DNA of 64,000 nt from Macrostomum lignano (lineage: Eukaryota). The notes beneath the pieces were generated by a model, which saw only the letters and a list, made by a program, of their open reading frames with translations, searched no databases and was not told where the DNA came from. Location: NCBI GenBank assembly GCA_002269645.1, contig NIVC01000150.1:62001-126000 (forward strand). The letters are read 5' to 3'. Positions 5,083 to 19,651 of this stretch are shown piece after piece. Numbering within the stretch: position 1 is the first letter of the stretch; every line of letters begins with the position of its first letter. The position numbers and the translations under genes were made by a program.

Positions 5083-7197
5083 CGCGTGGTGCAAGTTGCG
5101 TCACTCAAAAGTCAATACTGCTGAGCTAGAATTTTATACTGCGCACTCTTAAAGGTGGCGATTTTTTATGTTGTTGATAAAATATATCTATACATATAAA
5201 AATCAAAACTCTGTCTGTCTGTCTGTGTGTCTGTGGACATATATATATATAAAGTTTGCGAGTTAATGCAGGAATATGATAATATATTACTGCATAAATG
5301 TATATATGTCGCCGAACTGCTGTCGCCAAATACTGCCGCCGAGTCCAAGCTGTCGCCGAATTAACTGGTTCTCTAGCTAGGCTTCCCCTATGTATTGTCG
5401 CCGAAGTGACTGCATGGTAGCCCTACATGTAATTTAAGCCATTGATCTCTATATATCCATATCCATGCACCTAGCTTGATCCTAACCTCGAATTTATAAC
5501 CCCAAAATAAGTGTGGGGATAATTGCACCTGTGCTTTTCTGAAAAAAAAACAATGAATAGTAATTTTTACAGGAAAAAGTCACTTCGCTTCAACTCTTCC
5601 GCTCTGCAAAGCTTCAACTTGCTCTGGCACCGAAATGTCTAGCGTCTCACGCGGCTTCCCAATATTAGGGCTGCAGTGCATTATAAGAATATTTACTCTA
5701 GGTTCCTCTTAAAGCAGTAAAAACCCCGAATTTCAGACAAAATTGGTTTAAAAGTTATTAGATTTTTTATTTTATTAGCACCAGAACATTCTTAATCTTT
5801 GGTATTATTTTAATTTAGACGTTTGTGAAAAATTATCGTGCAGGGATCACTTGACGATAACAACTTAAGTCGAAGATTTAATATTTTATATTAGTACTTT
5901 AGGCATTCATTTAAAGTGTAGTCTTATTAAATAGGATAAAGTGGTAAAAATATAAGTTACTTAATATAACATTATTCACTCGCTAGCTTCTTAATTTATT
6001 ATTGCACTTCGGTGACTTGCTTTTGTCATGACAATGACAACGCATATTTTATCAACCTTTTCACAATTGTTGGTATGCCTAGCTACTCATTCTAGGGCCT
6101 AGCTAGTGTACTAAAGTGCTCTAGACCTAATGAGACAATGTTACAGTGTAGTGCTTAGCCTTGAGATTCTAGAAAAAAATTAACCTAGTAATTTTGCTTT
6201 TATTTTAATCTTGGAGCTCCTATTCTCACTGTTTTAATGCATTGATTTGATAATGAATTGTATCTTCCAATTATAAAAATCAAGATATCTATATAAATAA
6301 CCTATAAAGTATTAAAGTAATTAGAAGACAGGCAAATTATTATTTTATTTTAAAAGAAGATGCTTATAGAAGTCATTAGCAACAATTCTCTAAAGAGTTT
6401 ATAAATAAATATTATATCAAAGAGGGAACACCAAATTTGAATATTTTCTTTTAAAAGTAGCAAAGCTTAGTATCAGTGAGTATTTAATACTTGCATTAAA
6501 TTATACATATATTAAAAAACTACACTTTTCTTTTTAATATACAGCTTTTCAAGACATATATTATGATAACAAGTGTTAAAAAATTTATTTATTCTACAAA
6601 AAGCTTTTTTCTATAATTATAGTTAAAGATATATAGCATAACTTAATATTATATAAATGTTATACATATAAAATAAGCCTAGGATACATCAAATTGTACA
6701 AAATCAAGAAACTATATCTATCTACTGTTTTTCTGTTCAAATTGTACCAGCATGGCAATATACATAGAAAACATTAATTATTGTTAAACCTATTTCATAT
6801 CATCAACTCAATTTTTATCAAAATCACAAGCATTTTAACTTATACATTGCAGAAAAGTATACAATATATGGAATAAATAGGAATATATATTTCAAGTTGT
6901 TACTGCACCTCTAAACCAGAATATTTTGATATAAAAATTAATTTGCATATGCATTAGCTTATTTTAGATTGATAGACAGGTGCAGATTTTTAATTTCATA
7001 TAATTTGATGCATTTTCATATTGAAAACCTAGCCAATCTAGCTAGGTGACAAGGTAGTCAAGGTCAGGTTATGTTGCAACACTGATACAAAAAATAAATA
7101 AAGAGTTTTAAATAGTCAAGGCCAAAACTAAAGAGAGAGAAGATTTTAATTGAATGCAGAGCAAAGCTTTGTTGCAAAAAGGCTCACTGTGTACAAC

Positions 7198-7835
7198 ACT
7201 ACTATGGACTGGCAGATGGCGCGATTTTGCGAAGGTCCGTCGGGCTGATGTCGGCCTCTAGCACCGCGGCAAGGTGCTCCCTCGGGGTGTACACCCGGGG
7301 TGTACCTCCAGCGGGGTGGGTGTCCAGCGAGTGTACCTCCAGCGGGGTGGGCCTCCCGCGAGTGTACATCCGGCCGGCTGGGCGTCCAGCGAGTGTACCT
7401 TCAGCGCATGGGCCTCCCTCGGGTGTACATCCGGCGGGGGGATTCCCGCCCCTCCCACCAATGTCGTGTGCACGCGGTTAGTGTAGGAAGGAAACCCCCG
7501 ATGCTGACGCAGCCCTGTACACTGAGCAACCGGCCCCCCATGCGGGGGACAGAGAGCAGCCCCTGTAGCAGGAGGGGTAGTGCGTGGAGAGCCGCCATCC
7601 CCCTGTAGCAAGGGACAGATAACAGGCGGCCCCCTGTAGCAGTATGAGGTGGGGTACAAAGAGACACGGGGTGCTGGGACAGAGAGTGCGTGGAGGCACC
7701 CTGCGCTGCCCTGGCATGTCGCAGCACGCGGCGTGGACAGAGAGGGAGTGTGAGTCACACGGAGGGACAGAGAGCTTCCCCAGGCCGGGGTGGTAGAGGG
7801 ACAGACCGGCGGTGAGTGATAGAGAGCCCCCCAGG
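7198..7835 (+). repeat. Left terminal inverted repeat of the virus
   Basis: Reverse complement of 17058-17691 and 18453-19089; contains GTGTAC-core ~31-bp subrepeats and recurring GGGACAGA and CCCCTGTAGCA motifs. Confidence 0.95.
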
Positions 7836-7910
7836 CTGCAGAGGGACAGACAGGCCGCGAGCAACGTGTTAATGCAACCATAAATAGAAGCAGTGTACAA
7901 AACCCTCTGT

Positions 7911-8690
7911 ATGGAGAACATGGAAGAGGGTATAACTGATAACCCCTATTTCAGCAACGAGAGCGTGCGCGCCAGATTACCCCTCATTGAAAGATTGTTA
8001 TCAGACACTAGGAAAAGAATCGAGGGATTGACCGCAAAGGAGCGCTTAGAATTCACGTATCTAGCCCGGCTGGCATTCGTAACTGAAGTAAACATTGAGG
8101 AGAGAGAGGTGGCGTTGACTTGGGAGGAAGCAGAAGAAGCGATAAAAACCCGGTCCTGTATGGTCACAGCCAATCTATGGAGTGCGGCAATACACCTCAA
8201 TGACACGAGGGGGTTAATTGACACAGAGTTTGTTAGACAAGTTCACACACGCGTGTGCAGAGGACTGCTCCCGAATGCAGGATCGTATAGAATTAAGCAC
8301 GCCAAGCCAGCAGGCGCGAGTATGTATTACAGTGCCCCAGAAAATATTGAACGGCAGCTGGTAAAATTAACTAGAGACATAAAAGAGCCACAAATCTTGC
8401 GTGATGCAGTAGTGACAGGAGCATATTTCCTAGAAAAGTTTCTCACCATACACCCCTTTAGCGACGGCAATGGTAGAACTGCTAGGTTGTTATTATCAAA
8501 GTTGATCAACCGGATTCTGCCAGAACCCGTATCATTTGCATACGCAAATAGAGACACATATCTCAACTGTCTTTACGAAGCGCGCAGCAGCAACCGGGGG
8601 CTCCTAGCGGCGTATTTACTTTTATCAATTGAGAGAACCGTTCTACAGTGGAGGGAATGGTTGGAAATCTGTTCAGACGGCAGCCTATAA
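7911..8690 (+). CDS. Fic-domain (AMPylase-type) protein
   Basis: Canonical Fic motif HPFSDGNGRTARLL, upstream G.YR flap region (AGSYRIKHA) and a helix resembling the autoinhibitory segment (EVNIEE). First ATG is 7911; the ORF track starts at GTG 7893. Confidence 0.92.
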   Translation: MENMEEGITDNPYFSNESVRARLPLIERLLSDTRKRIEGLTAKERLEFTYLARLAFVTEVNIEEREVALTWEEAEEAIKTRSCMVTANLWSAAIHLNDTRGLIDTEFVRQVHTRVCRGLLPNAGSYRIKHAKPAGASMYYSAPENIERQLVKLTRDIKEPQILRDAVVTGAYFLEKFLTIHPFSDGNGRTARLLLSKLINRILPEPVSFAYANRDTYLNCLYEARSSNRGLLAAYLLLSIERTVLQWREWLEICSDGSL

Positions 8691-8724
8691 ATAAATAAAA
8701 TTGGTATTTCTCAACAATATCGAA

Positions 8725-9078
8725 ATGTACTGGCAATCGGAAATAGTGTACACCCACGTTGACAACGCAGTGCTGGAAGTGGGATATTGGGACCCAAACA
8801 AACCGCGTTTCCGCATCCACTGTCAAAACTGTAGCTGTCCAGGAGCCGTGTTTAGTCGAGCACAATGGCATCGAATGAAATTTCTGGGCACTAGCTGCAC
8901 AGATTACGATCTCGGAGGCGGCGCATCTATCAAAGTTATCGACGGGAAGCGCCTGTACGTAAAAGGAGACTGCGAATTTCACCTGTCAGACAAAATACTT
9001 TGTGCAGTTGAAAAGAATAGAGTCGACAATTTCTTCCACTATTTCTTTCTCGACGAATCTGACGAGTCAGAGGAATGA
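8725..9078 (+). CDS. Viral hypothetical protein (~117 aa, acidic tail; weak resemblance to PC4/whirly-like ssDNA-binding folds)
   Basis: ATG 40 nt after a TATAAATA motif; stop overlaps the next start (ATGA). The fold guess from LEVGY...FSRAQWHRM is inference only. Confidence 0.65.
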   Translation: MYWQSEIVYTHVDNAVLEVGYWDPNKPRFRIHCQNCSCPGAVFSRAQWHRMKFLGTSCTDYDLGGGASIKVIDGKRLYVKGDCEFHLSDKILCAVEKNRVDNFFHYFFLDESDESEE

Positions 9079-9590
9079 GCTGGATTTCTCGAGACTACCC
9101 GCTTTTATCGAGCAAAGAAAGGGCAGAGTACGAGACCCTGAAAAAGTCCACAGACTGGTTATGCATTTGTCACGGCAAACCAATTCCCGAACGATTAGTC
9201 ACCTTTAATGTCGAGGTAGACGAAATTGGGCAAGGGCCTTACAGCACCCAAGAATATACAGATGCCCGAATTGACTACTACTTTAGAGACAAGATGCATT
9301 TCAAAGCCAATCTTCAAAGAATGGAGCAGATAATTGCCCCAATATTACAAGAGGATCATCGTGAGAAAATACGGTACCGGAATCACCAGCCGATTGCTCC
9401 CTCGTGGACAGAACACCAAAGGATTTGGCGACCTAAACACAGTAGACCAGTGCTAGCGAAGTTGACTATCAACCCTCACTGCAGCTGCATTAACGACACG
9501 CCTCAAACCCCTCGACCAGAAGATCGAAACAAAAGGTTTATTTTTTCCGGATTTCCAACACCGGAAAGTGTCGTTAAAGAAGCACTATAA
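9075..9590 (+). CDS. Viral hypothetical protein (171 aa)
   Basis: Clean ATG-to-stop ORF coupled to the previous gene by an ATGA overlap; has CICH and HCSC motifs; no recognisable family. Confidence 0.65.
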   Translation: MSWISRDYPLLSSKERAEYETLKKSTDWLCICHGKPIPERLVTFNVEVDEIGQGPYSTQEYTDARIDYYFRDKMHFKANLQRMEQIIAPILQEDHREKIRYRNHQPIAPSWTEHQRIWRPKHSRPVLAKLTINPHCSCINDTPQTPRPEDRNKRFIFSGFPTPESVVKEAL

Positions 9591-9681
9591 CAAAAACGCC
9601 CAGCCACCCCACCCTCCGCCCAAGGGTATATAAGGAGGCGCTCAGGGTGTGAGACCCACTCTCAGCAACAGCAGCAGCAAC

Positions 9682-10362
9682 ATGGATACCGTTCAAGACT
9701 ACAATAGTGTTAGGATCGACCTATTCTCTCTCAAGTCGAGAGGTCCAAGCTACAACGGAACCGAGACGTACGACATTGAGTACGACGAACAGGGCCCTCT
9801 CTATCTTGCCAATGCGACGCCCGTACTGATTGTCAAGGGTGTGAGAACCGACAATGAAGGCCGCGAATTCATCATTCTTTCCCAAAAGCACTTGGAGAGC
9901 TGCATACCAGAAGCGTTCAATTCCGTGTGTCACCAGCTCTCTATCCAAGGAATGGCGCTATTGGGGTACAACCCCACTTTTGGCTGCGACAGCGCTGCAT
10001 TCGGATTGGCTCACGACTTTAAAATGTACGACAAGAGCGGCAAGTTGTGCACCGACTACAAGAACAAGACGGGCTACTATAGAGTACTGTTCGCCCTAGA
10101 CACGGCGGTGATTCACGACTCGGTTCTAACCGCGGTACCAAAAATTCAACAACTGCAATTCATAGAAGCTCCCAAGCAGGCGTTTGACCGCTGCTACTGG
10201 ATTCCACCGTTAAAAATCAAGGTAGGACGCAAGCGCGGAGCTGGTGGAGCTGAGCGGAAACAAAAGCAACCGAAAAAACCGCTTGCAGAACGTCGTGTGC
10301 GTAAACAGGGTGTTTTGCGCAAGGTGGAACCACCTACCGAACTTGGACTGGGCGCGCGCTAG
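9682..10362 (+). CDS. Viral hypothetical protein with beta-rich core (possible OB-fold SSB) and basic NLS-like C-terminus
   Basis: GC-box-like tract and TATATAA (9627) precede ATG 9682. The FKMYD..G...YRVLF...KIQQLQF pattern is reminiscent of viral SSBs (inference). The 3' end overlaps the TBP-like frame. Confidence 0.65.
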   Translation: MDTVQDYNSVRIDLFSLKSRGPSYNGTETYDIEYDEQGPLYLANATPVLIVKGVRTDNEGREFIILSQKHLESCIPEAFNSVCHQLSIQGMALLGYNPTFGCDSAAFGLAHDFKMYDKSGKLCTDYKNKTGYYRVLFALDTAVIHDSVLTAVPKIQQLQFIEAPKQAFDRCYWIPPLKIKVGRKRGAGGAERKQKQPKKPLAERRVRKQGVLRKVEPPTELGLGAR

Positions 10363-10762
10363 AACGTTTCATAGACCCCGGGCATTGTACAACCTGAGGA
10401 TCGGAAAGTGTACAATAAACTTTTTCAAACGTTCATTATCTGCCATTGTTTTTGGTTGCCAATCAACCAACGATGTGCTGCGTCTTTTTGCTCAATGTAA
10501 ACCAAACTCTGTTGTTATCACTACCGGTACTTATCGTGCAGAAGTTAATGTTAAGCCAAACTTTTTCCGCCTTGCCAACTCGAGCTCGCGCTGGGTTGAG
10601 TGGGAGAGTGAGGTATTCAATGGGCTTGTAATAAAGTCCCCATTCCGCAAGGCCAAGTGCCTGCTGTGCGGAAAGAATGGTCGGTTAGTGTTCCTAGGAA
10701 TACGAAACTATGACGAACTGTGTAAAATGTACGACCACGTGACTGCTATTCTGCAACTCTAA
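10244..10762 (+). CDS. TATA-binding-protein (TBP)-like two-repeat protein; no in-frame ATG start
   Basis: LQNVVCVN matches TBP LQNIVSTVN; IVFGCQSTND matches VCTGAKSEE; WESEVFNGLVIK...CLLCGKNGRLVFLGIRNYDELCKMYDHVTAIL matches YEPELFPGLIYR...[31 protein letters not shown]. The frame is open from 10226 with no early ATG. Confidence 0.72.
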   Translation: MELSGNKSNRKNRLQNVVCVNRVFCARWNHLPNLDWARARTFHRPRALYNLRIGKCTINFFKRSLSAIVFGCQSTNDVLRLFAQCKPNSVVITTGTYRAEVNVKPNFFRLANSSSRWVEWESEVFNGLVIKSPFRKAKCLLCGKNGRLVFLGIRNYDELCKMYDHVTAILQL

Positions 10763-10800
10763 TTATGCTTTGCTTATAAATAAACAAAATATGCACATGT

Positions 10801-11190
10801 ATGCACGCAATGCTTACCACCTTAATAATGACAAACGGAATTTCTCGTCTTTGTTCTTGCCGTCGCGAGCTAGAGGAGCTCGGTGACGCGCGACCACATC
10901 GAAGGAGGGCCATTATTAGGGGAGCCGATAATGAGTTGATGCAGTGTCTGTGCGAGTTAAGTCACAATGTACTCAAGGGCAATATCGATCTATCCCCTAG
11001 ACAGTTTGCAAGGTTGAAACGTTATAGAGAAGCCCTGCATGACATGGCCGACAAAAAACTGTCTATAAATAGGAAGAAGAATATGATACTATCGGACCCT
11101 CAAGTTGGAGGATTCCTACCAATTCTCGCCAAGATTGCTGCACCGTTAATCACTGGACTGTTTGGTGGTCTGCTAGGACAACGACGTTGA
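10801..11190 (+). CDS. Putative virion core protein, adenovirus pX(mu)-like C-terminus
   Basis: Basic body plus QVGG|FLPILAKIAAPLITGLFGGLL, similar to adenovirus pX (xRGG|ILPLLIPLIAAAIG) after a protease site; TATAAATA at 10775. Confidence 0.75.
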   Translation: MHAMLTTLIMTNGISRLCSCRRELEELGDARPHRRRAIIRGADNELMQCLCELSHNVLKGNIDLSPRQFARLKRYREALHDMADKKLSINRKKNMILSDPQVGGFLPILAKIAAPLITGLFGGLLGQRR

Positions 11191-11192
11191 AA

Positions 11193-11774
11193 ATGGACAA
11201 GTACGTTGTGGTCCCCGAGGAGGAATTCAATCAGCTTAGACAGGGTACTCCGCGAGAAATTGCCCCAAAATCGGAGTACGAAAAACTTGTAGAGTACAAT
11301 GCAAAGCTACAGACCCAATTGGCTAAAGTAAAACCCCAAAAGACGACAAAGCAGCTATTTTCTGATAGGCAACAACGTATATGGAATATACTAACAGAAA
11401 AGCACCCCAGCCTAAATTACAACCAATCGTGGGAAGTCGTTTTTGATGGTGAAACTTGGGGTGGCAGCAACGTTTTTGATCTTCTACAAGCCGTCACCAC
11501 CAACACTAATAATCACCCGAAATATTCGACCGCTTTCTGGGCTCTGCTAGACAAGGCCCGTATACCAATGTCTATGCTCGGTCGGAAACAGCTCCCTGTG
11601 GAGGAAAAGAAGGTTGACCATATGGTTGGTACCGATGATTACCGCGATGAATATGAGCACACAATTGCGACAGACACCCGCGATTTAACGACCACGCGCA
11701 ACAAAGGTGTAAATGCTATGCCCAACTTGTGGATCAAGGTGCCGGGATGGGTAAATATCACGATTACCAACTAA
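11193..11774 (+). CDS. Conserved Polinton/adintovirus hypothetical protein
   Basis: MDKYVVVP start and ...EVVFDGE...GSNVFDLL...P...F...L....IP pattern that I recognise from Polinton accessory ORFs; tightly coupled to the upstream stop. Confidence 0.6.
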   Translation: MDKYVVVPEEEFNQLRQGTPREIAPKSEYEKLVEYNAKLQTQLAKVKPQKTTKQLFSDRQQRIWNILTEKHPSLNYNQSWEVVFDGETWGGSNVFDLLQAVTTNTNNHPKYSTAFWALLDKARIPMSMLGRKQLPVEEKKVDHMVGTDDYRDEYEHTIATDTRDLTTTRNKGVNAMPNLWIKVPGWVNITITN

Positions 11775-11946
11775 GACCGCCCCGGAACCGAAAATACGAT
11801 ACTCTTTATAAATAGAACCCTAATCCATACATAACCGCGCCCGGCGGTCATGGGCGCAGCAGCCGCCGCATCAAAGCTTTGTGTAGACAACTCCCCAGCC
11901 GACATTACGTGCAACTATTCATGCTGTGCATCCACACTTGTTGTCA

Positions 11947-13026
11947 ATGAGGGCTCTAACCGCTCTTCGTCGAGTTTACGAACAAGGAGCCGCCGCTTTT
12001 TCAAATGCTGCCCGTGTCTATCAGGAGGCCAAACGTCTGGCGCCAAACCTGACAAGACGCCAAACCAGGGAATGGCTAGAAACCCAACCGAGTTACACCC
12101 GTCACCGGAGAGTCAACAGGACATTTAAAACGGGAAAAGTAATGTCGGGAGGATTCATGGAAACTCTACAAGCCGATTTGATGGACATGTCGCGATACAA
12201 ACGTTGGAATGACGGACATAAATATATACTAGTTGTTATTGATGTGCTTAGTAAGCAGGCTTTTTGTAGGGCAATTAAACTAAAGAGTGATACCCCCGCA
12301 GCGTTTGAGTCAATGTTGGCGAATGATTTCCCTGCCCGCCCCCTTTACCTGCACGTGGATCGGGGTACCGAGTTTTATAATCAGCGAATGCGCCGCATAC
12401 TAAAAGACAATAATGTTAAAATGTACAGCACCAACTCTGTGTACAAGGCAAACATGGCCGAGAGGCTGATTAGAACTCTTCGAAAGCGTCTGGCTCGCTA
12501 CTTTGAGCACAACAACACGTGGCGTTGGGTTGACTACTTACCCAATTTGGTAGGTAATTACAACAACACGACGCATTCTACTATTGAGATGAAACCGTCA
12601 AGTGTAGGGTTCCACAATCAGAAGCGTGTGTGGGAAAAGCTCTACCCGGATCAGCAAAAAGACGACCCCGTATATAAAAAGGGGGATTTTGTGAGAATTT
12701 CGAAATCTCGCCGGGCATTCGACAAGGAGGCGTACGACATGTATAGTGAGGAGGTGTACATTATATCCAAAGTTTGTCCTGGACCCCCACATTTTTATCG
12801 TATTTCTGATTTGTCTGGTGAAGTGATTGAGGGACGGTTTTACTACAATGAACTGTCCAAATCTACCCGACCCGAGCGTTTTGTAATCAATAAAGTTTTG
12901 CGTAGAAACGTGTTAATAAATGGTGTTGCGCACCATTACGTTAGCTGGCGCGGTTATCCCGACACTTTTAATTCATTTGTACCTGTAAATGAAGTTATAA
13001 ATATACGTCAACGTAATAATAACTAA
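11947..13026 (+). CDS. Retroviral-like DDE integrase with C-terminal chromodomain (Polinton c-INT)
   Basis: LQADLMDM...KYILVVIDVLSK (D), LHVDRGTEF (D), MAERLIRTL (E); C-terminal VSWRGYPDTFNSFV chromo-like motif; consistent with the 6-bp TSD. Confidence 0.95.
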   Translation: MRALTALRRVYEQGAAAFSNAARVYQEAKRLAPNLTRRQTREWLETQPSYTRHRRVNRTFKTGKVMSGGFMETLQADLMDMSRYKRWNDGHKYILVVIDVLSKQAFCRAIKLKSDTPAAFESMLANDFPARPLYLHVDRGTEFYNQRMRRILKDNNVKMYSTNSVYKANMAERLIRTLRKRLARYFEHNNTWRWVDYLPNLVGNYNNTTHSTIEMKPSSVGFHNQKRVWEKLYPDQQKDDPVYKKGDFVRISKSRRAFDKEAYDMYSEEVYIISKVCPGPPHFYRISDLSGEVIEGRFYYNELSKSTRPERFVINKVLRRNVLINGVAHHYVSWRGYPDTFNSFVPVNEVINIRQRNNN

Positions 13027-13029
13027 TGC

Positions 13030-14168
13030 ATGGCTACCATGCATCTCTTTCTGCCTAGCAATGCGTGCCCCGAGCACTATCCCGAAAATAATCCGGCTCA
13101 TTATTTTATTAATTTACCGGACACTCTCCACTTTCCGAATCATGAGGTTTGCCTCGAACGGATCTACTTTACCAAAGAATTTGAATCTTTCAAAAAATCT
13201 ATACCGATCACCATTCGCGAACAGGAGGGCCTCTTGACGGCTTCGTCGTTTGCAAACCTTTGTCTCGCAGCGGGTCTGAAAACCCCTGAAGAATGTATTT
13301 CCGGCTTTCTAAACGGTATCCGATACGTTGAAGGGGATAATAAGAAAATTGTCTTTTTAAGAACATCCCCAACCGCCTTTATGATTGTGAATACTTCAAA
13401 ATCCACTGTCGGCATCAAATTCCCGGATACCCTACCCAAGGTGTTTAAACTAGTCGCCGGCTTCGAGTCTAATGAGGATCTACCTACTGAACTCGTATTA
13501 CACGCGGGGTGTGCAGCCTCCATCACCGCAGTTGTTGAGGAACCGACTGTGCAGTCAATGGACCATGCTCCAATAATAAGACAAGTTACTAGCGCAGCGT
13601 CTGATCAAATCTATTTTATGCAGGGTGGATACTATAGTACACCTAAAAGAATGGTGGAGGAACTCAACAATTTAATTTGGAAACGGATCAAAGATCTCAT
13701 AGCGGCTCCAGCACCTAGAACGGACTTTTTCGGATACAGCGAAGTTACGAATAGGTGTTATTACATTGGCTCGATGGATTACATGTTTGGGCTGGGGCGC
13801 TTGACCGGCATGCTTGGTTTCCCAGAGCATGATTATACAACCCCATTTTTCGGTATATCGGACTTTGGGCAGCCACATCAATGGAATTAACCGGTGGAAT
13901 ACAAACAATGTACATCTATTCGAGCATAGTCGATTCTGTTATTGTAGGAGACGTTAAAGTTCCTCTGTTGGGAGCTATACCGATGGATCCCAAAGTTCAG
14001 GGCGGTCGCGAGTACTACGAGTTTGTCAATCCGGCATATCTACCGCTGGTTAAGCACCCATTCAAAACTATTGAAGTACAAATTAACGATGATATGGGCA
14101 GGGATATGACAAAAGTAATGAGGGGCAAGACCGTCTTGAGCGTTAACATCCGCGAAAAGAAGCTATAA
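13030..14168 (+). CDS. Penton / minor capsid protein, split by a 1-nt frameshift near 13846-13850
   Basis: N-terminus FLPSN...YPENN...F.INLP..L...EVCL and C-terminus MYIYSSIV...VGDVKVPLL...Y.PL...FKTIEVQI are the two halves of the Polinton penton. Adding one T to the T5 run at 13846-13850 joins ORFs 13030-13890 and 13881-14168. Confidence 0.85.
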
Positions 14169-14211
14169 ATAAACAGCACAGCCTCAGTAAACTATATCCT
14201 AGTGCTTAATC

Positions 14212-14556
14212 ATGCCTTCTATTCTGATTGGTGGAGCTTTGCCTGTTTTCGCGGGCGCCCAGAGGGGCAACGGTTTGTTTGGAAGCATTGCCCGCTTCGC
14301 GCTGCCAATTCTAAAGAGTTTTGGTAAAAACGTTCTCCGTCATGGTACTAGAGCCCTAGCAACTACTGTTAACGATAGCCTCGAGCAAGGAGGCAATTTG
14401 AAGGAGTCTGTCCTGCGCAATTCTGTTCAGGCTGCCAAGGACGCCTTTAAAGACACGGTTACCCAAAGGGGTAGCGGACGAAGAAGAAAAAAGGCTCCGA
14501 AGCGTCTCAATTCAGACATTTTCAGCACTATAAATAAAAAGCCCCGCTTCAATTAG
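14212..14556 (+). CDS. Small protease-processed virion protein (adenovirus pVI/pVII-like)
   Basis: LIGG|A, QRGNG and QRGSG motifs; amphipathic LFGSIARFALPILKSFGK helix; basic RRRKK tail; lies directly before the MCP. Confidence 0.72.
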   Translation: MPSILIGGALPVFAGAQRGNGLFGSIARFALPILKSFGKNVLRHGTRALATTVNDSLEQGGNLKESVLRNSVQAAKDAFKDTVTQRGSGRRRKKAPKRLNSDIFSTINKKPRFN

Positions 14557-14585
14557 ATTCGCCGAATCGAGTCTGTCTACTAAAC

Positions 14586-15869
14586 ATGTCCGAGTGTCTG
14601 TGTACAAAGTCCGAGTTTGAGCTCTTTGCCCCTCGAGCCCACCAGATTGCCGCTGTAGGTTCAACTACTGAAGAAATCCACCCGGTTGCCAGCGTCGAAA
14701 ATGCGAGTGTGGTTGAGTTTAGAATTGTGGGCGGCGAGACGTTTGTCGATCTTAATGACATTGATCTCGAGATTAAAGGTTGTATTAAAAGAGCTAATGG
14801 AGCCGATTTGGCGGCGGATTCAAACGTGGCGCCAATCAATTACCTCTTGGAGACCATGTTCAAAAACGTGTCTCTTTCCATAAATGGTACACATATCGAG
14901 TCTAGCAACAACAACCATGCCTACAAGGCGTACATTCGTACATGCTTGAGTTATGGGTCTGATTCAAAGTCTAACCAACTGCGGATGATGGGCTACGCTA
15001 AAGACGCTGGGGGTCAAATGGCTGCGGTTGGAAATCCTGGCTTTGTAACTCGCAAGGCGATGGCTGCCGGTTCTCGAACATTTCACCTGTATGGCCCTCT
15101 TAGTCTCGACTTTTTTGTCACCAACGATCGTATGCTGCTACCCTACACTGATATGGTGGTTACGCTCACTCTGCAAAATTCGGGATTCGTTGTAGAGAAT
15201 CACGCCGAAGGGGTTGATGCAAAGTTGGTTCTTCAAAGTGCAAAATTACACGTTCGTCGGGTAAAGGCTAACCCCCAACTGGCCTTGGAGATTGAAGAAC
15301 AGCTGGCAACTCAGAATGCAGTCTACCCCATCGAGCGCCTCGTTGTACACAACACCTCTGTCGCTGTAGGAGTTCGCGACGTGTCAATCAATAATATTTT
15401 CCCGGAGCAGAAGCCTAAACTTGTCATTATGGGGATGGTAAATAGTGCCGCATATAACGGGGTGGCTACCCATAATCCGTTCAATTTCGAGCCATTTGGG
15501 GCTGACAGTGTGGCCCTGTACAAGGACGGTGTCAGTCTGTGCGGTCAACCATTCACTCCAAGGTTCGCTGCCCAAAACTATGCTCGCGAATACGCCATGC
15601 TGTTTAAGAGCCTAGGGAAAATGAATCGCGATTTGGACATTGACCTGTCATATTCGGATTATCGCGCCGGTTACTGCTTATTTGCGTGGAATCTAATGCC
15701 CGATATGGAACTGGGTGGACATAGCATGCCTCGCGAGAGAGGGAATCTGACCCTACAGATAAAGTTTTCTGCAGCCCTACCTGCCGGGATTAACGTTTTG
15801 GTGTTTGGTTACTTTGACAACGCGGTGCAAATCACTAGAGGCCGCCAGCCCATTCTGGACTACGTATGA
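14586..15869 (+). CDS. Double jelly-roll major capsid protein (hexon/PY)
   Basis: 427 aa; EC..KSEFELF N-terminus, YPIER, NPFNF and GYCLFAWNL.PD motifs typical of Polinton MCPs; position between core protein and protease. Confidence 0.93.
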   Translation: MSECLCTKSEFELFAPRAHQIAAVGSTTEEIHPVASVENASVVEFRIVGGETFVDLNDIDLEIKGCIKRANGADLAADSNVAPINYLLETMFKNVSLSINGTHIESSNNNHAYKAYIRTCLSYGSDSKSNQLRMMGYAKDAGGQMAAVGNPGFVTRKAMAAGSRTFHLYGPLSLDFFVTNDRMLLPYTDMVVTLTLQNSGFVVENHAEGVDAKLVLQSAKLHVRRVKANPQLALEIEEQLATQNAVYPIERLVVHNTSVAVGVRDVSINNIFPEQKPKLVIMGMVNSAAYNGVATHNPFNFEPFGADSVALYKDGVSLCGQPFTPRFAAQNYAREYAMLFKSLGKMNRDLDIDLSYSDYRAGYCLFAWNLMPDMELGGHSMPRERGNLTLQIKFSAALPAGINVLVFGYFDNAVQITRGRQPILDYV

Positions 15870-16303
15870 ACACGTTGGAAATTTTGGAGTGTTTAAAACT
15901 ACCTGTGGAAGTGCACGTTTGCCCTCTCGACAGAATTCCTGCACCTGTTTACCCTGCTGCATATGTAATTAATTTTGACACGGGTAATCTGCCAGGCACC
16001 CACTGGGGACTGATTTGCCTACACGATGATAAGAGTGTGACATTTTTTGACCCTCTGTGTATTGAACCCGTGCCGGAATTGCTCTCGGCTTGGATCTCGA
16101 AGCATGTACATTCACCTGTTGCTATGAATCGCCACCCTGTTCAACACCCTCTAAGTGTAGCGTGTGGGCCGCATGTGATTTTTGTGGCCGAAAAGCACTT
16201 TTTAGAGGGGTTGTCGATTGAAAAGATTTTAAGGGAATGTTACTCTACCAATCTGCTTGAAAATGATTTGATGGTTCGAAAACATGTTCTACAAATAAAA
16301 TAG
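15866..16303 (+). CDS. Adenain/Ulp1-type maturation cysteine protease
   Basis: INFD...PGTHW (His), FFDP (Asp), QHPLSVACG (Gln/Cys) in catalytic order. Confidence 0.93.
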   Translation: MNTLEILECLKLPVEVHVCPLDRIPAPVYPAAYVINFDTGNLPGTHWGLICLHDDKSVTFFDPLCIEPVPELLSAWISKHVHSPVAMNRHPVQHPLSVACGPHVIFVAEKHFLEGLSIEKILRECYSTNLLENDLMVRKHVLQIK

Positions 16304-16337
16304 TTTTTAATATTTGGAGTGTCAACTCGCCCTGAAA

Positions 16338-16966
16338 ATGTACCAAACAATTGATCCTGACGCTCTAAAGTTTGCTCCAAATACTTCGGCGATTTTTGCT
16401 GGTGTTAACCAGAGCGGAAAAACAACTCTTGTTAAAGAATTGCTGCGAAACGAGTTTTTTCAGGACCCTAAGCCTGTTCGCGTTGATTGGTTTGGGCACT
16501 ATCCAGACCCGGAACTGTTTGAATTACCGTACCCTGTCAATTTTCGCTCGTCTACATTTAACCCTGAAACCTATGTTCCCGCTCCGAATATTCTATCGTT
16601 GTCGATGATCAAATGCAAGCCATGGAAAAAAACGCTGCTTTTACCGCATTTTTCACTCGCAAAGTCAGCCATGTGGGATTCCGGCTTTGGTACCTTGTAC
16701 AAAACCTGTTTGCCAAGGGCAAGGAGCACCGCACTCAATCCCTTAACGCAAACTACCTTGTATTGTTCCGCAATGTACGGGACGTTAGTACAGTCGCCCA
16801 TATTGCAAAGCAGCTTGTCCCCGCTAACCCAAAAAGTTTTGTTCAAATGTACGAAGACGCCACTAGGGAGCCCTACTCCTACTTGATTGTTAATTGCTTG
16901 CAGAACGCATCTGTTCGCTACTATGCTAATGTGTTGGGGCGCTACCCCGTAGTTTATGCTAAATAA
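16338..16966 (+). pseudogene. A32/FtsK-like packaging ATPase, copy 1, with a 1-bp deletion at ~16596
   Basis: Otherwise matches copy 2, but reads ATTCTATCGTT instead of ATTCTATTCGTT, splitting the ORF at Walker B; either a real lesion or a sequencing error. Confidence 0.85.
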
Positions 16967-17057
16967 AACACTGTTGGAGAGCTTTGCTCTGTTTGCCGGA
17001 TGGCCTGAACCTGAAACAACTAAAATACGTGTTTTTTCTTTTCAAGTCCTCTACTGC

Positions 17058-17691
17058 CCTGGGGGGAGCTCTCTATCACTCACCGCCGGTCTGTCCCTCT
17101 ACCACCCCGGCCTGGGGAAGCTCTCTGTCCCTCCGTGTGACTCACACTCCCTCTCTGTCCACGCCGCGTGCTGCGACATGCCAGGGCAGCGCAGGGTGCC
17201 TCCACGCACTCTCTGTCCCAGCACCCCGTGTCTCTTTGTACCCCACCTCATACTGCTACAGGGGGCCGCCTGTTATCTGTCCCTTGCTACAGGGGGATGG
17301 CGGCTCTCCACGCACTACCCCTCCTGCTACAGGGGCTGCTCTCTGTCCCCCGCATGGGGGGCCGGTTGCTCAGTGTACAGGGCTGCGTCAGCATCGGGGG
17401 TTTCCTTCCTACACTAACCGCGTGCACACGACATTGGTGGGAGGGGCGGGAATCCCCCCGCCGGATGTACACCCCGAGGGAGGCCCATGCGCTGAAGGTA
17501 CACTCGCTGGACGCCCAGCCGGCCGGATGTACACTCGCGGGAGGCCCACCCCGCTGGAGGTACACTCGCAGGACACCCACCCCGCTGGAGGTACACCCCG
17601 GGTGTACACCCCGAGGGAGCACCTTGCCGCGGTGCTAGAGGCCGACATCAGCCCGACGGACCTTCGCAAAATCGCGCCATCTGCCAGTCCA
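17058..17691 (-). repeat. Internal right TIR copy (terminus identical to the left TIR but missing the last 7 nt)
   Basis: Ends ...cgcaaaatcgcgccatctgccagtcca and joins directly to a copy of 16297 onward. Confidence 0.92.
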
Positions 17692-17731
17692 AAATAGTTT
17701 TTAATATTTGGAGTGTCAACTCGCCCTGAAA

Positions 17732-18361
17732 ATGTACCAAACAATTGATCCTGACGCTCTAAAGTTTGCTCCAAATACTTCGGCGATTTTTGCTGGTGTT
17801 AACCAGAGCGGAAAAACAACTCTTGTTAAAGAATTGCTGCGAAACGAGTTTTTTCAGGACCCTAAGCCTGTTCGCGTTGATTGGTTTGGGCACTATCCAG
17901 ACCCGGAACTGTTTGAATTACCGTACCCTGTCAATTTTCGCTCGTCTACATTTAACCCTGAAACCTATGTTCCCGCTCCGAATATTCTATTCGTTGTCGA
18001 TGATCAAATGCAAGCCATGGAAAAAAACGCTGCTTTTACCGCATTTTTCACTCGCAAAGTCAGCCATGTGGGATTCCGGCTTTGGTACCTTGTACAAAAC
18101 CTGTTTGCCAAGGGCAAGGAGCACCGCACTCAATCCCTTAACGCAAACTACCTTGTATTGTTCCGCAATGTACGGGACGTTAGTACAGTCGCCCATATTG
18201 CAAAGCAGCTTGTCCCCGCTAACCCAAAAAGTTTTGTTCAAATGTACGAAGACGCCACTAGGGAGCCCTACTCCTACTTGATTGTTAATTGCTTGCAGAA
18301 CGCATCTGTTCGCTACTATGCTAATGTGTTGGGGCGCTACCCCGTAGTTTATGCTAAATAA
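17732..18361 (+). CDS. A32/FtsK-like DNA packaging ATPase, intact copy 2
   Basis: Walker A GVNQSGKT, Walker B LFVVDD, and QNLF..GK..RT.SLNANYLVLFRN.RD A32 motif. Confidence 0.94.
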   Translation: MYQTIDPDALKFAPNTSAIFAGVNQSGKTTLVKELLRNEFFQDPKPVRVDWFGHYPDPELFELPYPVNFRSSTFNPETYVPAPNILFVVDDQMQAMEKNAAFTAFFTRKVSHVGFRLWYLVQNLFAKGKEHRTQSLNANYLVLFRNVRDVSTVAHIAKQLVPANPKSFVQMYEDATREPYSYLIVNCLQNASVRYYANVLGRYPVVYAK

Positions 18362-18452
18362 AACACTGTTGGAGAGCTTTGCTCTGTTTGCCGGATGGCC
18401 TGAACCTGAAACAACTAAAATACGTGTTTTTTCTTTTCAAGTCCTCTACTGC

Positions 18453-19089
18453 CCTGGGGGAGCTCTCTATCACTCACCGCCGGTCTGTCCCTCTACCACC
18501 CCGGCCTGGGGAAGCTCTCTGTCCCTCCGTGTGACTCACACTCCCTCTCTGTCCACGCCGCGTGCTGCGACATGCCAGGGCAGCGCAGGGTGCCTCCACG
18601 CACTCTCTGTCCCAGCACCCCGTGTCTCTTTGTACCCCACCTCATACTGCTACAGGGGGCCGCCTGTTATCTGTCCCTTGCTACAGGGGGATGGCGGCTC
18701 TCCACGCACTACCCCTCCTGCTACAGGGGCTGCTCTCTGTCCCCCGCATGGGGGCCGGTTGCTCAGTGTACAGGGCTGCGTCAGCATCGGGGGTTTCCTT
18801 CCTACACTAACCGCGTGCACACGACATTGGTGGGAGGGGCGGGAATCCCCCCGCCGGATGTACACCCCGAGGGAGGCCCATGCGCTGAAGGTACACTCGC
18901 TGGACGCCCAGCCGGCCGGATGTACACTCGCGGGAGGCCCACCCCGCTGGAGGTACACTCGCTGGACACCCACCCCGCTGGAGGTACACCCCGGGTGTAC
19001 ACCCCGAGGGAGCACCTTGCCGCGGTGCTAGAGGCCGACATCAGCCCACCTCACCTCCAAAATCAAGCCATCTGCCGTTGCTTAGTAGT
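18453..19089 (-). repeat. Outer right TIR with variant terminal ~45 bp, abutting the TSD
   Basis: Matches the left TIR up to GGGCTGATGTCGGC; spacers between conserved terminal blocks differ; ends TAGTAGT|TACAAC. Confidence 0.93.
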
Positions 19090-19210
19090 TACAACTATGT
19101 TGCACCAGCTAGGCAACTATGGCAGCTAATGAATATGACTATGGGAATATAGTGATTTACCCCAGTTTCAAGTGAAATACATCTGTACCCCTCGTTTCAG
19201 AAAGCAAGTA

Positions 19211-19651
19211 ATGTCGACCACTCCAGGCCAGTCCAACTCCGTTTCAATCGAGCAAACAGAGGAGGCCAAATTAAAACAAAAATATCCGAATTTGAATCGC
19301 AAAAGCATTGGCAGCTCCGTGCTGCACAAGCGGCTGAACAATAAAGGTCAGAAATATTTTGACAGCGGCGACTACAACATGGCCAAGGCTAAGGTAGTCG
19401 GCGCTCACCGGGCTCCCACCAGGGGCTCCGATCTGCTGGACACCGCCACAGGCGACACCATGGCAACGCCGGAAAGTGTGCCAGCTGTACGCAAGAAATC
19501 TCTAGTTGGCGGCCTTGACCCGCTGCTGCCGCCTCAGCAATTGCTGCAACCGCAGCAGCTGCAGCAGCAGCAGCACCGGAAGCCGTCCATCGCTTGCACA
19601 GAAGACGACCCCATGGCTATTGGCCGGCCAATTGTGCAATCAGATCAGTGA
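19211..19651 (+). CDS. ENSA: Endosulfine-alpha / ARPP-19 family PP2A-B55 inhibitor
   Basis: KQKYPNL...LHKRL...QKYFDSGDYNMAKAK Greatwall-site motif; splice acceptor TTTCAG at 19195-19200 just upstream. Confidence 0.92.
   Translation: MSTTPGQSNSVSIEQTEEAKLKQKYPNLNRKSIGSSVLHKRLNNKGQKYFDSGDYNMAKAKVVGAHRAPTRGSDLLDTATGDTMATPESVPAVRKKSLVGGLDPLLPPQQLLQPQQLQQQQHRKPSIACTEDDPMAIGRPIVQSDQ

Follow-up and report, generated by a model that had tools for sequence, protein, structure and literature searches.

A divergent TBP-like gene in a Polinton-class element of Macrostomum lignano and the promoter box that it may serve

Why would a small Polinton-class element carry a gene resembling that of the TATA-binding protein (TBP), is this gene real, and what could it be for? 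The question arises in a stretch of 64,000 nucleotides of Macrostomum lignano (hereafter, the window), in which an open frame on the forward strand (10244–10762, 172 codons; 10226–10762 from stop to stop) contains all the motifs that an earlier, sequence-only reading had aligned by eye along both TBP repeats. This homology was borne out. The Pfam TBP profile (PF00352) matches residues 101–171, i.e., the C-terminal half, with an E-value of 8.2e-5 and 22.8 bits, marginally below the cut-off of 22.9 bits, while TBPs account for 14 of the 15 matches in a PDB sequence search (best E 0.003) and for the top-ranked clusters of the ESM Atlas (cosine 0.94–0.95). For the N-terminal half, missed by Pfam, the best of 48,161 chains is yeast TBP (7o4i_O, Z 6.9, rmsd 2.5, 72 aligned), a middling score (<8) obtained with a poor model (pLDDT 47, built from three sequences); the list holds four further TBP-containing chains. 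The two-repeat saddle of PF00352 is thus recovered, the C-repeat by Pfam and the N-repeat from that model. Moreover, HHalign gives 95% over 125 columns against the protein of a second Polinton TBP lineage. Altogether, the frame 10226–10762 almost certainly encodes a highly divergent TBP homologue.

Residues were mapped by alignment on the host TBP, so that their assignment is alignment-dependent, and are numbered as in yeast TBP. The protein is basic overall (pI 10.0) and only 20% identical to the host TBP (22% to the second Polinton lineage), and it retains N69, V71, F116, E186, E188 and F190. The DNA-intercalating phenylalanines and the TFIIB and TFIIA surfaces, which the sequence-only reading had singled out for inspection, are conserved in part. 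Two of the four phenylalanines are kept (F116 and F190), F99 being replaced by P and F207 by C, and the symmetric set of minor-groove Asn/Thr residues is broken (N69 kept; N159 to T, T124 to F, T215 to L). The acidic TFIIB stirrup (E186, E188) is present as E-S-E-V-F, its acids being retained in every element-borne row of the alignment, while basic helix 2, the face for TFIIA, TAF1 and Mot1, has lost positions 133, 137 and 138 in all six rows of the window lineage (lineage A). The protein thus shares with cellular TBP and TRF (PF00352) the two-repeat saddle, the strand-1 Asn, the E-x-E-x-F stirrup and its basic character, but differs from them by the replaced equivalents of F99, F207 and N159, a shortened helix 2 and the lack of its own start codon. 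As far as its sequence tells, it is a TBP-fold homologue without the complete set of four phenylalanines and the full helix 2 of a canonical TBP; the loss of two phenylalanines may weaken DNA binding. An N-terminal domain binding the Pol II CTD was not found in the 159-aa TBP region, and the exon possibly fused to it looks weakly SSB-like.

A search of the genome with the protein returned 91 matches, among which 15 are identical and full-length (window copy included) and 21 are near-full-length at 74–77% identity (subfamily 2). The frame is conserved in sibling elements: it is open in 19 of these 21 matches and, between the subfamily of the window copy (subfamily 1) and subfamily 2, dN is 0.14 and dS 1.8–2.0. 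Since dN/dS is about 0.08, the gene is, on this comparison, real and under purifying selection. That it would be a non-functional relic or a chance frame could be argued from the missing ATG, the Pfam score just short of the cut-off and the lack of any Pfam match for the subfamily-2 protein. This is barely credible, as the dN/dS value already largely refutes it, and both the open subfamily-2 frames and the relatives outside this genome speak against it. The latter are few (three at 61–65% identity and two at about 30%, metagenomic records among them), and no related loci were found for them in viral or metagenome contig sets.

The element around the gene was delimited as follows, the labels for penton, core protein and capsid following the adintovirus gene order.

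7198..19089, no strand: whole element, with ends ACTACTA...TAGTAGT and target-site duplication (TSD) TACAAC at 7192–7197 and 19090–19095; no pPolB
7198..7844, no strand: left terminal inverted repeat (TIR), with partners at about 17048–17680 and 18456–19089
7911..8690, forward: Fic-domain ORF with HPFSDGNGRTAR motif (Pfam PF02661, E 6.6e-14), unmatched in those subfamily-2 loci that were fetched
10289..10762, forward: TBP-like coding region (conserved exon, strand-1 Asn to stop), from Pfam, PDB, ESM Atlas, structure search and dN/dS
11947..13026, forward: retroviral-type integrase (Pfam rve, E 1.9e-9)
13030..14168, forward: putative penton, in two frames in the window copy, from gene order
14586..15869, forward: putative major capsid protein, a label taken from gene order; no Pfam match
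15866..16303, forward: putative adenain-like protease (Pfam C48, E 0.06, weak)
17732..18361, forward: putative packaging ATPase, second copy (weak P-loop Pfam matches); the first copy, 16338–16966, is split

Only the integrase and the Fic protein have a firm Pfam identity; the major capsid candidate shares about 30–33% identity with ORFs elsewhere in the genome, some lying in pPolB-integrase elements. The Polinton-class context proposed by the sequence-only reading nonetheless stands, with TIRs, a 6-bp TSD and a retroviral-type integrase. The copies read agree in where the element ends; both ends were recovered in eight of nine other subfamily-1 copies fetched, with a 6-bp TSD in seven of these eight, and a subfamily-2 copy of 9.8 kb also has its TSD. 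What that reading overlooked in this small element is the lack of a start codon for the TBP gene and of a DNA polymerase: no tblastn match to pPolB was obtained at E 0.01 in either subfamily. Nor was any RNA polymerase gene found among the ORFs of the window element. The element termini read AC...GT; those of Polintons are AG...CT. Two local features may be mentioned here. A 1.39-kb tandem duplication covers the ATPase and the right TIR (16297–17656 and 17691–19049), the two right ends differing in their terminal bases, and another copy (G000:C201) likewise has two right ends, 1.35 kb apart. A host endosulfine-like exon (19200–19651, Pfam E 1e-7) lies about 110 nt behind the right end of the element.

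Compared with adintoviruses, MELD viruses and Polintons as described in the available text of PMC8502044, the window element has the same TIRs, 6-bp TSD and rve integrase and a putative capsid-protease-ATPase block, but no pPolB, whereas a complementary, polymerase-only family has the same termini. Polintons with pPolB and integrase together are reported in the available text of PMC6431247. Two elements of the polymerase-only family (about 9.4 kb), of 10.1 and 9.0 kb, were delimited.

G000:C491:285031-295129 (L156+L157): pPolB partner element, TIR-bounded
G000:C173:199634-208632 (L158+L159): pPolB partner element, TIR-bounded

Their termini, 6-bp TSDs and TATATAAG promoter context are those of the window family. 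Both code for pPolB (Pfam E 1.3e-16) together with a weakly supported PC4-like protein, the first also for a 338-aa ORF, and gave no tblastn match to any of 14 window proteins and no integrase or capsid match. Among 40 scored of 281 candidates, the partner TIR forms 15 inverted pairs, 14 of which span 8.6–10.8 kb, and nine of the 15 enclose a scored pPolB match when compared by hand. The shared terminal pattern matches the genome 295 times (control: 0) and, within the 100 of these matches that are listed, bounds both types of elements; over its outer right 45 nt, the window element is identical with either end of a pPolB element. With 74 of 735 pPolB candidates scored, a TBP match and a pPolB match share a contig in four cases, at least 43 kb apart. 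We therefore lean, with some confidence, towards regarding the capsid/integrase/TBP family and the pPolB family as two complementary segments of a bipartite Polinton, the rival view being that a complete master element, as yet unseen, exists instead of two segments and satellites. A pPolB subfamily at 64% identity was considered as the partner of subfamily 2, which is unproven: those of its contigs that fall in the listed range (e.g., C157, C220, C485 and C566) do not appear in the listed 100 of the 295 terminus matches, and no element end was found in C2285. Two further loci (L164, G000:C181:502450-511250; L165, G000:C56:88600-97080) have the same termini and 6-bp TSDs over 8.5–8.8 kb, with mirror-image ORFs that match none of 16 element proteins; they are apparently non-coding palindromic satellites.

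A TBP-like gene is less exceptional in such elements of this host than the sequence-only reading, which did not count it as a standard gene, had supposed. When the genome was searched with the Pfam TBP profile, 150 matches were scored out of 330 candidates; most are multi-copy frames, several adjoining pPolB genes, and at least four Polinton lineages in the host genome have TBP-like genes. In particular, a second lineage (lineage B) resides in pPolB-bearing Polintons and has its own ATG. At least three Polinton lineages other than that of the window (L076, L078, L095, L144, L152) have TBP-like genes, several with a PC4-like gene (in one case Pfam PC4, E 8e-5); in L144, the first Met of the TBP frame is at codon 47, so that this frame may also be without a proper start. 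The ORF starting at 8725 in the window element was considered as a PC4 as well, which the comparison does not support. A tree of 20 rows separates 15 element-borne or similar rows from five rows treated as cellular (support 98/94), which suggests, although long branches meet at that split, a single capture of the element TBPs. A TBP is already known from a MELD virus, being listed in a figure legend of Starrett 2021 (PMC8502044), the available text of which gives no function, promoter or splicing for it. Mirusviruses encode a TBP too (available text of PMC10132985). These and the nucleocytovirus proteins are, like that of the window, viral TBP homologues, but no close link was found (nothing in BFVD at E <=0.001; best weak match E 2.6e-3), and their genomes measure hundreds of kb according to the source as available, unlike the window element. 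In the literature searched (excluding subscription journals and Repbase), we found no account of Polinton TBP function, of the promoter boxes or of a bipartite Polinton. Mirusviruses and nucleocytoviruses mostly encode their own RNA polymerase. Animal Polintons and adintoviruses are assumed to rely on host factors for the timing of their genes.

The sequence-only reading had started the gene at 10244, with a GTG. This start was rejected, since it is not conserved: subfamily 2 shows no homology in the part with the GTG, and one sequencing run has CTG there. Conservation of the coding sequence sets in at 10283–10289, and no ATG precedes the TBP domain in the window copy or in any of 12 subfamily-2 copies. 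Two features ahead of it bear on how the protein could be made.

9682..10362, forward: upstream ORF of 226 aa, with a 180-aa conserved domain and a basic tail that overlaps with the TBP frame; its part 9682–10221 is the candidate exon 1
10222..10288, forward: candidate phase-0 intron of 67 nt (donor AAG/GTAGGA, acceptor CTTGCAG/AAC); the acceptor may be a trans-splice acceptor instead

The candidate donor (10221/10222) falls in phase 0 at codon 180 of the upstream ORF, is kept in 12 of 12 subfamily-2 copies and ranks best of 13 shared GT sites, while the acceptor (10288/10289), also in phase 0, is the only nearby YTNCAG in both subfamilies; the spacer between them measures 67 nt in subfamily 1 and 196–206 nt in subfamily 2. 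By eye, the L-K-I-K ahead of the donor would fit TBP strand 1. The conserved domain of the upstream ORF appears weakly OB/SSB-like, judging from a poor model (pLDDT 33) whose top fold match, T7 gp2.5 (Z 3.3), is a lead only; nothing was found for this ORF in ESM Atlas, Pfam or PHROGs, and its two longer database relatives are host gene models without a TBP frame. We hold the chances evenly balanced that TBP is made by cis-splicing 10221/10222 to 10288/10289, which would give an SSB-TBP fusion. GT-AG introns interrupt the partner pPolB gene at conserved positions, and the Polinton system therefore does use the spliceosome; the candidate TBP intron is purine-rich, unlike these. (The pPolB genes of L156 and L154, from subfamilies 64% identical, have the same intron positions, one of them inside the DxxSLYP motif.) Runs of identity measure 15 nt at the donor and 14 nt at the acceptor, which is not exceptional relative to other runs in the same genes, and the TTG CAG of the acceptor doubles as L-Q codons of the TBP consensus. 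Contigs of four sequencing runs, presumed to be RNA, contain no splice joint over the acceptor and no loose end at 10289, and those of three runs span the candidate intron unspliced; since all four consist of contigs whose depth is flat and which may stem from DNA, they do not decide on splicing. Likewise, no processed copy appears in the genome: the exon start was present in 18 of 19 loci read, all 18 keeping the genomic acceptor region, and in none of the 91 genome matches does the start coincide with the exon boundary.

Trans-splicing to the host spliced leader, the terminal AUG of which would be in frame at the acceptor (10289), is a more tentative possibility. A flatworm spliced-leader AUG is able to start translation (PMC9851317), and YTNCAG is the top host trans-acceptor motif (PMC8629364), both according to the available text of these papers; the published spliced-leader end has 61 matches in the host genome, and ATG/GTAAG ends all three array loci read. 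Six non-array matches, when read, all continue into sequence other than the spliced-leader intron, one downstream sequence being common to three; they look like retrocopies of trans-spliced RNAs. Translation from a UUG at 10283 is improbable, and expression by another route scarcely less so. A programmed frameshift from the upstream ORF, finally, might be read into the overlap of the two frames, the CCGAAAAA kept ahead of the acceptor and one copy in which both lie in a single 375-aa frame. That copy is a lone case, and the frame offset, which is +1 for subfamily 1, amounts to +2 in eight of 12 subfamily-2 copies, the upstream frame ending first in the other four; with spacer lengths and frame offsets thus differing between subfamilies, a frameshift is very improbable.

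What the protein might bind is suggested by a set of boxes in the window element.

9624..9634, forward: GGGTATATAAG, the SSB/TBP unit's TATA box, conserved in subfamily 2 as well as ahead of the PC4-like gene of the polymerase elements
8686..8693, forward: TATAAATA box, 39 nt ahead of ORF 8725
10775..10782, forward: TATAAATA box, ahead of ORF 10801/10828
11064..11071, forward: TATAAATA box, 129 nt ahead of ORF 11193
11807..11814, forward: TATAAATA box, ahead of ORF 11850 and the integrase
12996..13003, forward: TATAAATA box, 34 nt ahead of the putative penton
14164..14171, forward: TATAAATA box, 48 nt ahead of the putative core protein
14529..14536, forward: TATAAATA box, 57 nt ahead of the putative major capsid protein

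All seven TATAAATA boxes lie on the coding strand, with none on the other (shuffle mean 0.27, maximum 1 in 100 shuffles), and the distance to the ATG is 26–57 nt in the six cases other than that at 129 nt. Subfamily 2 has six copies (shuffle mean 0.19) ahead of the same genes, so that 13 sites across the two subfamilies are one identical 8-mer. The SSB/TBP unit has no such box, the conserved GGGTATATAAG standing in its place; ORF 9075 and the protease also lack it, the Fic and ATPase genes have one-mismatch forms, and neither of the two polymerase partner elements tested contains any. Several of the boxes overlap AATAAA polyadenylation signals, and 13 of the 20 occurrences in the window fall in host DNA. 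As an observation apart, the 92-aa ORF at 11850–12128, directly behind a TATAAATA box, starts with MG, has Cys pairs, overlaps the start of the integrase and is kept in subfamily 2; its product is possibly lipid-modified.

In lineage B, it is another box, CTTAAGAA, that occurs three to five times on the TBP strand in nine of nine stretches (shuffle means 0.4–0.9, one maximum reaching 5), the motif having been selected on three of these nine stretches and the remainder being related copies. That strand is devoid of TATAAATA, and both lineage-A elements are devoid of CTTAAGAA. Where positions are listed, CTTAAGAA is mostly 41–109 nt ahead of an ORF, and the lineage-B TBP gene itself sits behind it, unlike the window TBP unit with respect to TATAAATA. 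By eye, two further lineages show CTATAAGAA and TTATAAGCAA; two stretches with TTATAAGCAA have no TBP within the fetched 20 kb, and one related stretch is without TTATAAGCAA.

We consider the viral TBP to be probably a promoter-recognition factor for the later genes of its own element. Host Pol II would first read the SSB/TBP unit from the ordinary TATATAAG box observed there; a minimal TBP of about 157 aa, without ATG, would then be made by splicing to the acceptor 10288/10289, bind TATAAATA ahead of the capsid, core, integrase and other genes, and recruit TFIIB and Pol II through its retained acidic stirrup. The loss of helix 2 might free it from control by TFIIA, TAF1 and Mot1, judging from TBP structure-function relationships. 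The outcome would be an early-to-late switch resembling that of the beta- and gamma-herpesvirus vTBP, with the DNA polymerase taken from the partner element. Steering of Pol II to viral promoters, one of two roles raised by the sequence-only reading, thus gains support from the seven boxes and from the other TBP lineage with its other box.

Alternatively, the boxes might be ordinary TATA or MEF2-type sites (the latter YTAWWWWTAR) read by host factors, with the TBP-fold protein serving some other DNA task, such as origin or terminus binding or replication coupling, perhaps as an SSB fusion. Indeed, TATAAATA is a canonical TATA box with 13 occurrences in host DNA, so that the host TBP could serve it; the overlaps with AATAAA and the weak tie of the TBP gene to an SSB-like ORF point the same way. 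Against this stand the change of box with TBP lineage, including the non-canonical CTTAAGAA, the single 8-mer at all 13 sites and the stirrup acids kept in every element-borne row, and we hold this alternative unlikely. The other role raised by the sequence-only reading, a dominant-negative decoy that titrates TFIIB or occupies host TATA boxes and damps host transcription, would suit a protein with its TFIIB face kept and its TFIIA/TAF face and half of its phenylalanines lost; nothing specific emerged in its support, and we regard it as quite improbable. The element needs host Pol II itself because no RNA polymerase gene is found among its ORFs, many intact copies persist in the genome, and a decoy offers no account of why the promoter box changes with the TBP lineage.

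The closest functional parallel to a promoter-recognition role is ORF24 of the herpesvirus KSHV, described in the available text of PMC7498053 and PMC12529657 as a multi-domain protein whose N-terminal domain binds the Pol II CTD and which acts in a six-protein complex on TATT. Like this type of vTBP, the window protein is a virus-encoded TBP mimic that would use host Pol II and a dedicated AT-rich element in the promoters of structural genes, the pairing being our own inference; unlike it, as far as these sources go, it is a bare saddle, the TFIIB stirrup is kept, and the enriched box is TATAAATA and not a TATT late element. By analogy, the window TBP would work like a herpesvirus vTBP without being a member of that type. 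If so, the herpesvirus-style switch of late transcription would be found here in very small form, on a 10-kb element equipped with a TBP and the box to match; as four lineages in one genome each have a different box, specificity is directly testable by cross-binding.

Taken jointly, these readings would describe a bipartite integrating Polinton-class flatworm virus, with a capsid/integrase/TBP segment, an intron-containing pPolB/PC4-like segment of about 9.4 kb, satellites of 8.5–8.8 kb on the same termini, and its own early-to-late switch by a minimal TBP that stems from regulated splicing and whose box co-evolved in each lineage; the whole is possible, if somewhat short of probable. Regulated splicing could act in two ways: either an SSB-TBP fusion would couple late transcription to strand-displacement replication, or the AUG of the host spliced leader would be borrowed for TBP. 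The ATG-less gene is in that respect a test of viral use of the flatworm spliced-leader AUG. Two families that complement each other between identical termini, one with the polymerase only and the other with capsid and integrase only, suggest a segmented Polinton, and possibly a parallel to the origin of bidnaviruses, in which Polinton-derived pPolB and capsid genes are on separate segments with common short terminal sequences. Bidnaviruses are ssDNA viruses, not known to have an integrase or to carry double jelly-roll capsid, protease and ATPase genes. Finally, copies differ in the 20–25 bases inside the terminal ACTAC, seen in the window element within 7198–7225 and 19060–19089. These bases are assembled from short blocks in the manner of a mosaic; a given copy usually has the same version at its two ends, and identical terminal variants are found in capsid-type and polymerase-type elements.
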